Shown piece after piece: positions 8,964 to 47,036 of a stretch of 64,000 nucleotides of DNA. Within the stretch, counting starts at the first letter, position 1. The number at the start of each line of letters is the position of its first letter. A program made the translations under genes and the position numbers. The notes beneath the pieces were generated by a model. That model was given only the letters and a program-made list of their open reading frames with translations, searched no databases and was not told the origin of the DNA. The DNA is from Paludibacter sp. (GTDB lineage Bacteria > Bacteroidota > Bacteroidia > Bacteroidales > Paludibacteraceae), in assembly GCA_009781075.1 (NCBI GenBank), contig WQYU01000001.1, positions 5,373-69,372 on the forward strand. Direction: 5' to 3'.

Positions 8964-9035
8964 TAGCCCATAGGGGAGTTGAACCCCTCTTTCAAGAATG
9001 AAAATCTTGCGTCCTAGCCGATAGACGAATGGGCC
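8964..9035 (-). tRNA. tRNA-Glu (anticodon UUC)
   Basis: The reverse complement GGCCCATTCGTCTATCGGCTAGGACGCAAGATTTTCATTCTTGAAAGAGGGGTTCAACTCCCCTATGGGCTA folds by hand into a 72-nt cloverleaf. It has 7-bp acceptor, 4-bp D, 5-bp anticodon and 5-bp T stems, and the T-loop is TTCAACT. CCA is not encoded. Confidence 0.9.
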
Positions 9036-42798: not shown

Positions 42799-42806
42799 TA
42801 ATTTTG
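42799..42806 (+). promoter_or_regulatory. -7 promoter box (TAATTTTG)
   Basis: TAnnTTTG match 20 nt upstream of the fumarase ATG. Confidence 0.45.
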
Positions 42807-44445: not shown

Positions 44446-44542
44446 AAACAAATGAATGAATGACACCAAGCGGCTTAACATATATGGGAGTTAGCGGCAA
44501 TTCGACAGACTGTGCAGCAGACACATTAAAAAAATATTGAAA

Positions 44543-46729
44543 ATGAAACAAGTGAAGAATTTTGAAAAATTTGAAGAAGATGTAAAATCCTTATATGAGT
44601 CCTTTGGCTTTAAAGTATATAAAGACGTTTTAATAGATGCCAACCAAATTGATTTAATTGCCGAACTTCAAAAAGCAGGAGTATTGTATAGAAACATGAT
44701 TGAATGCAAAGCATATAGTGAAAACGTTGGTATTCAAGAATTAAATATATTCATAGGGAGATTTTTAACTGCAAAACAGAATAAAAAAGCGGATAAAGGT
44801 ATTTTTGTTACAACGACTGGTTTTACACGGGATGCGAAAGAGGCTGCTGCCAACGCTGGAATAGACCTTTTTATTTATTCTGACCTCCTTAAAGAATTAC
44901 AAAATTTTGAACCACTTGCAGAAAAAATGGTTACAGACTGGCATTCTTCTAAAGAGTACTCATATTACGTTGAGCCATTTGGTAAATTAGATGGACAAAA
45001 TGAAGAATCACCACTTATTGATATCATCAACTTAAAACTAAATTCAAAAAAAGGAGAAGTAATCGCATTATTGGGTGAATATGGTTCAGGTAAATCAATT
45101 TTCTTACAAAAACTTGCTGCTGATTTCGCTGCCAAATATTTATCGTCTAAATATCATGATAAAATTCCAATATTTATTAAACTTAGAGAATTACAATATT
45201 TCAGGGATATAAAAGATTTAATTAAACACACTATTTCTCAGCAAGGAATCGAAGTGTCCAAAAATAATATATTCGACGAGATGTTAAGAAATGGCAAATT
45301 TCTTCTTTTGTTGGATGGATTAGATGAAATTACCCCAGATGTTGATGAAGATGTTATTATTGAGCAACTTTCTAGATTAAATGAAATAATGATAGAGGGC
45401 AGTAATGTAATTATAACTAGCAGGTCGAATTTTTTTCAGGGTAAGCAAAGAGCTAAAATGATTTTACAAGATTTAGAACGCACTAGTTTAGAAAAATCTG
45501 CATCTCCAAGAAAATCATTTGCTGTGGTATGGCTTCAGGATTTTAGTGATACTCAAATAAGTGATTTTTTAAAGAACCGAATACCTAAAGACGCAAATGA
45601 TTGTTTTAAAATGCTTAAAGAAACATATAATCTTGAAGATTTAGCGAAAAGACCTATTTTGTTGGATATTATTTCAAACATGATGCCTGAAATAAAGAAA
45701 TTGAAAGGAGAAGTTAATGCTGCAAAATTATATGAAATATATACCAACTTATGGATAGACAGAGAAAAAAAGGAAAGAAATACTTCTCTTTCTAAAAAAA
45801 TAAAAAGACAATTCTGTCATGAGGTCTCATGGCATCTATTTATACATTCGTTGCTTGAAATTAGTTTTAGTGTTCTTACTAAAAAAATAAAAGATGTAGT
45901 TTCTCGGATAGAAGGTAGTGATGAAATCTCTGGAGCAATATTATTTGATGCACAAGTTTGTTCTTTTATGGAAGTAGGTGAAAACAAAACATTACATTTT
46001 GCTCATCGTTCATTTTCTGAATTTTTTTGTGCTCAAAAATTATGTAATGAAATAAATAATAATGATTTATCCTCATATCGTTTAAAATGCTTAACTCCTG
46101 AAATTCAATTTTTCTTACTTGATTATATTGGTAAACATGACTGCAAAAAAATGTTTCTCAACTGGGCGGCAAACCAAGATGATTTTGACTTAAAGGGGAA
46201 AGCACTTTGGTCAATGAATATTTTGGGAATCAATATAAAAGATTACAATCTCGAAAATGCTAATTTTAGTCATACACGATTTGAAGGTTTTGTATTTGAA
46301 GGGCTTAATTTGTCAAATTGTAATTTTCATGGTTCAAATCTTAATGGAGCAAAATTTATCAATTGTAATTTGAATAATTGTGTATTCCATAATGCAAATT
46401 TAGAAAACTCTGATTTCAGTTCTTCGTATGGTGAGCAAATTGATTTTTCCAACGCGAAACTTAATGAAACTAACTTTCTAAATACGAATTTTCATAAATG
46501 CAATTTGAAAAATTCAATCTTGTCAAATGCTGAATTAACTCATTGTGATTTAAGAGATTCAAATTTACAAAGAGCAGTTTTCTACCAAACAGATATTCAA
46601 AATGCGGATTTGAGAGGTACAAAAATTATCAAAATAGATATAGTAAGTAAATGTAAAAACTGGGAAAGTGCAGAATGGGACAAAGCAAATTTGAGCAGAT
46701 TAAATGAGGCAAAAAAAAGATATTCTTAA
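44543..46729 (+). CDS. Mrr-like PD-(D/E)xK nuclease / NACHT NTPase / pentapeptide-repeat protein (candidate NLR-type antiphage defence)
   Basis: The ORF track starts at TTG 44537, so I use the ATG at 44543. N-terminal ...QIDLIAEL...MIECKAY... is the nuclease motif. Walker A GEYGSGKS (nt 45074-45097), Walker B FLLLLDGLDE and the NACHT-type FAHRSFSEFFCAQ are present. About 130 aa of A(N/D)LxX pentapeptide repeats cover nt ~46244-46640. Confidence 0.85.
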   Translation: MKQVKNFEKFEEDVKSLYESFGFKVYKDVLIDANQIDLIAELQKAGVLYRNMIECKAYSENVGIQELNIFIGRFLTAKQNKKADKGIFVTTTGFTRDAKEAAANAGIDLFIYSDLLKELQNFEPLAEKMVTDWHSSKEYSYYVEPFGKLDGQNEESPLIDIINLKLNSKKGEVIALLGEYGSGKSIFLQKLAADFAAKYLSSKYHDKIPIFIKLRELQYFRDIKDLIKHTISQQGIEVSKNNIFDEMLRNGKFLLLLDGLDEITPDVDEDVIIEQLSRLNEIMIEGSNVIITSRSNFFQGKQRAKMILQDLERTSLEKSASPRKSFAVVWLQDFSDTQISDFLKNRIPKDANDCFKMLKETYNLEDLAKRPILLDIISNMMPEIKKLKGEVNAAKLYEIYTNLWIDREKKERNTSLSKKIKRQFCHEVSWHLFIHSLLEISFSVLTKKIKDVVSRIEGSDEISGAILFDAQVCSFMEVGENKTLHFAHRSFSEFFCAQKLCNEINNNDLSSYRLKCLTPEIQFFLLDYIGKHDCKKMFLNWAANQDDFDLKGKALWSMNILGINIKDYNLENANFSHTRFEGFVFEGLNLSNCNFHGSNLNGAKFINCNLNNCVFHNANLENSDFSSSYGEQIDFSNAKLNETNFLNTNFHKCNLKNSILSNAELTHCDLRDSNLQRAVFYQTDIQNADLRGTKIIKIDIVSKCKNWESAEWDKANLSRLNEAKKRYS

Positions 46730-47036
46730 ACCGCTGAACAAATTCAAGTTAATGAAAGATGTATTATATAGAAAAAATAAGAACTGCCGCTACCACGTTC
46801 ACTACACTTGTAACGAAACAAAACTATTGATTTTAAATACTACAATTCGGACGAATATGCGCTCACTTGCGCAAAACCGCTATATAAGCGAAAATGAGTG
46901 GAACGAAATTTCCGCTTATCGTCCCGCTCCAAATAGTCCTGTCTTCGCGCAAAAGCAAAAAAATAAAAAAGATAGGATTGTTTCCGTCTATAAAATTTGC
47001 ATACCGCAATAGTTATTACCAGTTTAGTAGATTCAT

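Follow-up and report, generated by a model that had tools for sequence, protein, structure and literature searches.

Can a lone gene lodged between two housekeeping genes make up a complete antiviral system? The question is raised by a 64,000-nt stretch of Paludibacter sp. (contig WQYU01000001.1 of assembly GCA_009781075.1; hereafter the window), in which the genes for fumarase and enolase are separated by a single gene. A preliminary description, made from the letters of the window alone, had read its product as a fusion of an Mrr-type nuclease, a NACHT nucleoside triphosphatase (NTPase) and pentapeptide repeats, and proposed an uncharacterised NLR-type antiphage system carried by an accessory gene. 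Our analysis makes it probable that this is a single-gene bNACHT-type STAND protein, horizontally acquired, and most likely a single-protein anti-phage or anti-mobile-element system. We infer the antiphage function by analogy. The precedents are bNACHT25, where a hyperactive allele is toxic and a nuclease mutation rescues, and the Avs proteins, including KpAvs2. Profile matches, a structural model, motif conservation, composition and the different context of a close homologue all agree with the NLR-type, single-gene and accessory character that had been proposed. The claim of novelty fares less well, as detailed below.

The gene corresponds to an open reading frame (ORF) on the forward strand at 44537..46729, which opens with a TTG at 44537 and has an ATG two codons on, at 44543. 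The ATG is the likely true start and gives a 728-aa protein (P0001), whose NCBI entry is titled 'MAG: pentapeptide repeat-containing protein [Paludibacter sp.]'. Residues are numbered in this 728-aa form unless the 730-aa reading is stated. Three Pfam domains follow one another in the order effector, NACHT, sensor, and all exceed their curated cut-offs in whole-protein bits: Mrr_cat (54.5 bits for a cut-off of 21; aa 10-118 in the 730-aa reading), NACHT (53.3 bits for a gathering threshold of 26.7; aa 175-301) and Pentapeptide (90.8 for 20.2, with Pentapeptide_4 at 69.5 for 38 and Pentapeptide_3 at 58.3 for 27). The three modules read earlier from the translation are thus all recovered by hidden Markov models, and the modelled folds agree with them. 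AF1548 (1y88) is the only PDB sequence match for the restriction-endonuclease-fold (REase) domain, with an E-value of 1e-4. The pentapeptide tract, announced as some 130 aa long, consists of 26 consecutive five-residue units (aa 566-695, nt 46238-46627), in which every fifth residue is L, F or I and the register never breaks; this corresponds to a four-sided beta-helix. These tandem A(D/N)LXX-type units in register, together with the modelled four-sided helix, identify a pentapeptide-repeat protein. Pfam finds no WD40 or propeller domain in the query, which stops 33 aa past the 130-aa tract.

We built an AlphaFold2 model of the protein from an alignment of 49 relatives (alignment A1). It has a mean predicted local distance difference test score (pLDDT) of 85.8 and a predicted template modelling score (pTM) of 0.70. 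The modelled N-terminal domain follows the alpha-beta-beta-beta-alpha-beta order of the PD-(D/E)xK fold (helix 4-20, strands 24-31, 34-44 and 47-56, helix 64-79, strand 85-90). The centre is helical and alpha/beta, and short, regularly arrayed strands form the C-terminus (pLDDT ~90-96). The top Foldseek matches in the PDB are NLRC4 (4kxf, E = 2e-13), NOD2 (5irm, E = 3e-13), NLRP3 and NAIP5, and the antiphage protein Avs4 bound to a phage portal is also retrieved (8dgf, E = 2e-9), in keeping with the kinship proposed at the outset. After these come the synthetic Beta1 solenoid 4ycq (TMt 0.80, root-mean-square deviation 1.7 A), AlbG, MfpA and QnrB1. The domains are arranged differently from those of NLRC4 and NOD2, which keeps the global TM-scores to these low, at about 0.3. 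Since the model matches both NLRs and pentapeptide solenoids, the fold and sequence assignments agree.

Homologues suggest how such a protein might work. In the resting state, the NACHT module would hold nucleotide and His488 would help to maintain a closed monomer. The outward-facing surface of the pentapeptide beta-helix would bind a ligand from the phage. Its binding would lift autoinhibition and allow nucleotide exchange at the P-loop and Walker B, followed by oligomerisation via the NACHT modules. Oligomerisation would gather the Mrr-type PD-(D/E)xK domains into active nuclease assemblies, and indiscriminate DNA cutting would then destroy the phage DNA and/or kill the infected cell (abortive infection). 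For Avs proteins, an activation model was reportedly put forward by Gao and colleagues in 2022.

The part assigned to the pentapeptide helix was assessed by comparison with the closest homologue, P0002 (73% identical), which lies on a contig from Logan DRR311422 (L001 1-20122). Identity is high in the REase domain (77%), the nucleotide-binding domain (NBD, 82%) and the segment spanning the first helical and winged-helix domains (HD1/WHD, 79%), and lower in the second helical domain (HD2, 63%), the pentapeptide domain (63%) and the C-terminal tail (50%). In the repeats, conservation is 81% at the inward hydrophobic position and 46-54% at two outward-facing ones. In this one pair of sequences, the outward faces behave in a way that fits a faster-changing recognition surface. 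Alternatively, the helix might not sense a ligand at all and be an in-cis DNA-mimic pseudo-substrate, a decoy for DNA-binding phage proteins, or a spacer or oligomerisation element left by an ancestor with NACHT, pentapeptides and a propeller. Its fold does match the DNA mimics MfpA, QnrB1 and AlbG, and pentapeptide repeats can inhibit DNA-binding proteins (Kaur et al.). Moreover, in the accessible part of the table of bacterial NACHT proteins of Kibby et al. ('Bacterial NLR-related proteins protect against phage', bioRxiv 10.1101/2022.07.19.500537), the short pentapeptide tract of clades 10/11 looks like a linker between NACHT and propeller. We nevertheless regard a non-sensing helix as unlikely. 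The net charge of the domain is only -4 over 145 aa and near zero across relatives of the same architecture, the outward repeat positions diverge fastest, and the tract varies among relatives from about 40 to about 260 aa. The query helix resembles Qnr, MfpA and AlbG in being a right-handed quadrilateral beta-helix of the same Pfam families. Those proteins are small stand-alone DNA-mimic protectors of topoisomerases, whereas the query helix is a domain of an NLR-like protein and not markedly acidic. An acidic DNA mimic of the Qnr/MfpA type was rejected on this charge and on the NCBIfam scores (Qnr 43.1 for a cut-off of 240, MfpA 32.7 for 360).

A related idea keeps the helix as the sole NLR sensor and makes it a DNA-shaped decoy that detects DNA-binding proteins of phages, or lets it gate the nuclease in cis as a pseudo-substrate. 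It is conceivable because the fold is a known B-DNA mimic (MfpA, Qnr, AlbG), and by analogy the targets of the decoy could be terminase, topoisomerase, recombinase or anti-restriction proteins. We give it little credence. If it were true, the helix would embody a guard or decoy mechanism unlike the TPR, LRR and WD40 sensors that have been characterised. The pentapeptide region (aa 565-638 in the 730-aa reading) also has a weak NCBIfam match to HalA, the effector of the anti-phage system Hailong (38.5 bits for a cut-off of 250), and this weak match suggests that HalA contains a pentapeptide-like segment.

The catalytic integrity of the REase domain matters because the query also matches PF22722, the 'NACHT-associated inactive Restriction Endonuclease 1' family (NA-iREase1), above its cut-off (32.4 bits for 27). 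The full tetrad E11...D37...E54-x-K56 is intact in the query. We aligned the REase domains of 132 relatives, 118 with the REase at the N-terminus and 14 with another domain in front of it. Among the 118, the four residues are kept in 115 (E), 116 (D), 105 (E) and 104 (K) proteins (88-98%), and the tetrad is lost in 4-5 of the 14 that carry a further domain ahead. Hence, with the tetrad present and conserved, the query REase is apparently not inactive in the way of clades 10/11. The profile, the E...D...(E/Q)xK signature and the modelled core topology mark it as an Mrr-type PD-(D/E)xK nuclease, i.e. a predicted enzyme. The PF22722 match could still be taken to mean that the REase fold is a non-catalytic adaptor like NA-iREase1, in a protein that senses or scaffolds and relays the signal to an effector encoded elsewhere, or that has lost its effector. 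In the closest catalogued arrangement (iREase, NACHT, Pentapeptide and propeller, in the accessible part of the table), the REase fold is indeed internal, presumably inactive and placed behind a separate effector. That the same holds for the query is rather improbable: Mrr_cat scores far higher than PF22722, the tetrad is conserved among relatives with an N-terminal REase, the protein has no other effector domain, and there is no conserved partner gene nearby.

The NTPase motifs are equally well preserved. Residues G178, G181, G183, K184, D258, E262 and R294 are invariant in the 49 sequences of A1, and D261 and H488 are nearly so. GEYGSGKS fits the GxxxxGK[ST] pattern of the P-loop, and the DGLDE at aa 258-262 fits D[GAS]hDE, the Walker B form that is diagnostic of NACHT among STAND NTPases (Kibby et al.). 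The motifs quoted in the preliminary description are where it had put them (Walker A at nt 45074-45097, FLLLLDGLDE at aa 253-262, and ITSRS, which includes R294). In NLRC4, the winged-helix residue H443 contacts ADP. H488 is presumed, by analogy, to be its equivalent, and it aligns with the F-L-H-R-S-F motif of bNACHT25. Because the tetrad, P-loop, Walker B, R294 and H488 are intact and conserved, the protein is, as judged from sequence, a competent NTPase fused to a competent nuclease.

The family had looked rarer than it is, because two word-indexed homologue searches had yielded no more than 16 and 14 hits. An exhaustive HMMER scan of 1.84 billion cluster representatives corrected this and gave 843 proteins at E <= 1e-30. 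We counted architectures in 165 proteins, searching each query module separately. The REase, NACHT and pentapeptide modules with nothing large after them, i.e. the query architecture, occur in 32 proteins and are thus common to at least 32 cluster representatives. The same three modules are followed by a C-terminal extension in 20 proteins. The REase and NACHT are followed by a different C-terminal extension in 51 proteins and stand alone in 15, an extra domain precedes the REase in 14, and 13 combine another N-terminal domain with NACHT and pentapeptides. The 49 relatives in A1 come from the first two of these classes. Pfam finds NACHT in all 49, Mrr_cat in 45, Pentapeptide in 45-46 and WD40 or a beta-propeller in about 10. 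In some relatives the effector differs. For example, the REase is replaced by a caspase in P0012, which belongs to the class with another N-terminal domain, and by a TIR domain in P0014. As read from the sequences, this apparent swapping of effectors and sensors is the modular exchange typical of conflict systems. The relatives are distributed patchily and sparsely.

We then consider where the gene sits. It is AT-richer than both neighbours, as had been noticed: its guanine-cytosine (GC) content of 0.294 compares with 0.428 for fumarase and 0.453 for enolase. Both its GC content and its GC content at third codon positions (GC3, 0.208) are the lowest of the 47 window ORFs of at least 150 aa (z = -2.2 and -2.6), which bears out the compositional difference. 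Upstream lie genes for LptD, a ketoacyl-synthase-like protein, a glycosyltransferase, an aminotransferase, an outer-membrane protein and the class I fumarase; downstream are enolase, an ABC ATPase and an ECF sigma factor. The absence of a TAnnTTTG box and of a terminator from the gap after fumarase, also claimed before, holds. On the forward strand we found no such box (the Bacteroidetes -7 box) from after 42799, just upstream of fumarase, to 44800, and no terminator-like site in the gap. The box at 42799, TAATTTTG, is a candidate promoter for fumarase. As the gap has neither box nor terminator, transcription from the fumarase promoter probably runs on into the NACHT gene, which is the simplest reading.

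The 80 closest species representatives carry a class I fumarase 69-80% identical to that of the window; none of them has enolase within 8 kb of it, and none has a NACHT homologue within that distance. Relative to these 80, the fumarase-enolase adjacency is peculiar to the Paludibacter sp. source genome. Exact-protein look-ups with fumarase and enolase retrieved only the source contig and one 9.3-kb contig, 100% identical over 3,175 nt. Because of this identity, the two assemblies represent one strain. Consequently, no empty fumarase-enolase site was found among the 80 species representatives, which lack synteny there, and the one identical contig. We found no flanking direct or inverted repeats that would suggest a target-site duplication.

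The closest homologue lies in a different setting. The P0002 locus encodes a TraG/TrwB coupling protein, a TPR-guanylate cyclase fusion, RNase T, DUF4238, an M78 peptidase, a 'Cytotoxic' domain protein and a 1138-aa helicase (RNase_H_2 with AAA_11/AAA_12), and looks like an integrative element or a defence island. The DNA similarity between the query and P0002 loci ends at the edges of the coding sequence (CDS). Two more distant relatives are placed differently again: P0006 adjoins a reverse transcriptase, DUF87 and a Dam-type methylase, and P0003 adjoins a reverse transcriptase. The two RVT_1 genes concerned (L087 82-1611 and L086 5253-6896, respectively) encode proteins of ~510-550 aa each. 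There is no conserved partner gene: of the 128 immediate neighbours at ~50 metagenomic loci, at most 3 share any one Pfam family. Neighbours related to defence include Cas1, MADS, PD-T4-6, PDC-S01/S66, a type II methylase, TIR, Schlafen/AlbA_2 and other NACHT proteins. The NACHT gene is most likely a horizontally acquired accessory gene. A non-defence role, as a STAND regulator, a stress or DNA-damage factor, or an addiction or toxin module of a former mobile element fixed beside fumarase, would suit the housekeeping neighbours, the lack of an own promoter box, the probable co-transcription, the shared site in two assemblies and the ordinary contexts of some relatives, but is very improbable given that the two assemblies are one strain, that none of the 80 related genomes has a homologue near fumarase, that the composition is atypical and the closest homologue occupies a different, mobile-type island, and that effector and sensor swapping with a patchy, sparse distribution are hallmarks of conflict systems and not of regulators.

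Several observations nevertheless count against a horizontally acquired defence protein with a sensing helix and an active nuclease. The PF22722 match is one of them, and the outward-face divergence comes from a single sequence pair. The window neighbours are all housekeeping genes: there are no defence or mobility genes among them, no defence island, and the gene would be co-transcribed with fumarase. P0009 is likewise set among ordinary genes. Our neighbour survey had no matched control, so we list the presence of defence genes and claim no enrichment. PADLOC, run at E <= 1, matched no bNACHT or Avs model and gave only weak matches on the nuclease domain, so this tool did not support the proposed kinship. 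The NCBIfam models of antiphage NACHT proteins all score far under their cut-offs (EruA 41.8 for 1000), and they gave no membership of EruA or HyoA. IMG/VR viral contigs gave only 10 weak matches, none with the full architecture. Finally, we found no experimental test of any pentapeptide-sensor NLR in the literature searched.

How does the query relate to catalogued proteins? Pentapeptide repeats are listed among the sensor repeats of bacterial NACHT proteins, and REases among their DNase effectors (Kibby et al.). In the accessible part of their Table S1, clades 10/11 combine one of several N-terminal effectors (caspase, TIR, SIR2, PNPase, calcineurin, trypsin, EAD or NNH) with NA-iREase1/iREase, NACHT, a pentapeptide tract of ~40 aa and a beta-propeller or WD40. 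The query shares with them the REase fold, NACHT and pentapeptides in the same order, and the match to PF22722. Relatives at ~30% identity resemble these clades, e.g. P0003, with REase, NACHT, a short pentapeptide tract and WD40, which suggests, at the level of sequence, that the query is close to clades 10/11. Unlike these clades, the query has its REase at the extreme N-terminus, with the tetrad intact and Mrr_cat outscoring PF22722; it has no additional effector and no propeller, and its pentapeptide tract is ~130 aa (26 units) instead of ~40 aa. Compared row by row in the accessible part of the table, each clade 10/11 entry with a pentapeptide tract continues into a propeller or WD40.

Two other clades share single features with the query in the accessible rows. 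In clade 2, Mrr_cat at ~17-132 is directly followed by NACHT, including in the Bacteroidetes protein WP_157567192.1 of Hymenobacter, in rows without repeats. In the cyanobacterial clade 9 (NNH3, NACHT and four Pentapeptide domains), pentapeptides are the sole C-terminal repeat, as in the query. The N-termini of its rows are NNH3 or EAD and not a nuclease, which sets them apart from the query. A text search of the accessible table retrieved no row with an active REase or Mrr_cat, NACHT and Pentapeptide that lacks a propeller.

Among the experimentally tested proteins, bNACHT25 and bNACHT32 (E. coli, clade 6) consist of an Mrr-like REase, NACHT and NCH1. Mutation of the winged-helix histidine of bNACHT25 is toxic (hyperactive), and the nuclease mutation D48A rescues (Kibby et al.). 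The partial sequence in the supplement of that paper led us to the complete bNACHT25 gene (WP_001702659.1) on an E. coli chromosome. The query resembles it as a single-gene fusion of an N-terminal REase effector and a NACHT switch. Over 341 aa, the NACHT modules are 23% identical (E = 3e-9), and the aligned stretch takes in the P-loop, Walker B and F-x-H-R-S-F. Unlike the query, bNACHT25 reaches only 17 bits with Mrr_cat, and the two REase domains cannot be aligned by BLASTP. Its C-terminus is a helical NCH1 domain (132 bits), where the query has repeats and no NCH1. Membership of the bNACHT25 clade was considered and rejected, as only the NACHT module aligns: the two proteins are analogous. 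The bNACHT25 gene (NZ_CP091756.1 2681525-2687923) lies in a Rac-like prophage region with ydaT, ydaV, DUF1627 and a truncated DUF977, and an IS3 transposase gene follows downstream. Only 17 of 5,426 complete E. coli genomes carry bNACHT25.

A similar comparison can be made with Avs proteins. KpAvs2 is made of an Mrr nuclease, a STAND module and a C-terminal sensor, and the query is likewise tripartite with an Mrr-family nuclease effector. The sensors differ: a pentapeptide beta-helix in the query, and in KpAvs2 a long C-terminal domain with homologous counterparts in other Avs2 proteins. In contrast to Avs, the query NTPase is a true NACHT, complete with DGLDE; the AVAST study had not singled out NACHT domains as such (Kibby et al.). 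Membership of Avs/AVAST types 1-5 was rejected, since no PADLOC Avs model was matched.

The preliminary description had presented the union of an Mrr effector with a pentapeptide sensor as without characterised precedent. This overstated the case, because the REase, NACHT and pentapeptide elements and their co-occurrence are on record in Kibby et al., PF22722 exists, the characterised Avs2 already joins Mrr, STAND and a sensor, and at least 32 proteins share the architecture. The protein is a further, putative member of the known class of bacterial NACHT defence proteins, not a new kind of system. Three features set it apart from the catalogued clade: an apparently active nuclease at the extreme N-terminus, no propeller, and a long pentapeptide helix as the sole C-terminal module. 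It brings no new principle, as the effector-NACHT-repeat logic, REase effectors and pentapeptide sensors have already been described and dozens of protein clusters share the architecture. If functional, it would be a compact 728-aa single-gene bacterial NLR with a pentapeptide beta-helix as its only sensor, a sensor class so far listed in computational surveys only, and it would extend experimentally grounded NLR-type defence to Bacteroidota of anaerobic environments. The regular helix, the intact predicted nuclease read-out and a hyperactivation assay at the H488 equivalent would make it a tractable model for the recognition of a phage cue by a beta-solenoid.

Table 1. Positions in the window of the NACHT gene, its domains and motifs, and the gap that precedes it.
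Feature	Coordinates	Strand	Basis or remark
CDS of the REase-NACHT-pentapeptide protein, stop codon included	44543..46729	+	alternative TTG start at 44537
Mrr-type PD-(D/E)xK restriction-endonuclease-fold domain, aa 8-116, predicted effector	44564..44890	+	Pfam Mrr_cat and NA-iREase1; AF1548; model topology
Catalytic tetrad span: E11 (44573-44575), D37 (44651-44653), E54 (44702-44704), K56 (44708-44710)	44573..44710	+	alignment
NACHT module (NBD, helical domain, winged helix, HD2), aa ~150-560	44990..46222	+	Pfam NACHT; Foldseek
Walker A / P-loop GEYGSGKS, aa 178-185	45074..45097	+	alignment A1
Walker B FLLLLDGLDE, aa 253-262, NACHT-specific D[GAS]hDE	45299..45328	+	alignment A1
Sensor-1 arginine R294 (ITSR)	45422..45424	+	invariant in A1
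Winged-helix histidine H488 (FAHRSF; FAHRSFSEFF)	46004..46006	+	nearly invariant in A1
Pentapeptide right-handed beta-helix, 26 units, aa 566-695, ~6.5 coils, predicted sensor	46238..46627	+	Pfam; register; model
Short C-terminal helical cap, aa 697-728	46631..46726	+	model helices 698-703 and 714-727
Gap after fumarase	44446..44542	+	without -7 box, without terminator

The 300 nt downstream of the gene had been described as non-coding and rich in structure. This holds for the forward strand only. The convergent intergenic region between the NACHT gene and enolase (46730-47036, 307 nt) has a minimum free energy of -65.7 kcal/mol on the forward strand (z = -3.75 relative to shuffled sequences), and its reverse strand gives z = +0.06. 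It contains one long hairpin near 46935-46985, and its GC content of about 0.40 is host-like, unlike that of the NACHT gene. The region has no Rfam match and could be a 3' untranslated region or terminator element, or a small RNA. It is probably outside the mobile unit, since the P0002 locus does not share it. Its non-coding status is complicated by public gene callers, which place there a 102-aa ORF (46704-47012, forward strand) whose first 26 nt lie within the end of the NACHT gene. This ORF has no Pfam match, is not conserved downstream of P0002, and is probably spurious because its translation, rich in K, N and R, shows no hydrophobic core. No known RNA family was found in or around the NACHT gene, where a sub-threshold L20_leader match within the CDS (E = 0.49) is noise. 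The sole gathering-level Rfam match in the whole window is a tRNA gene at 8964-9035 on the reverse strand.

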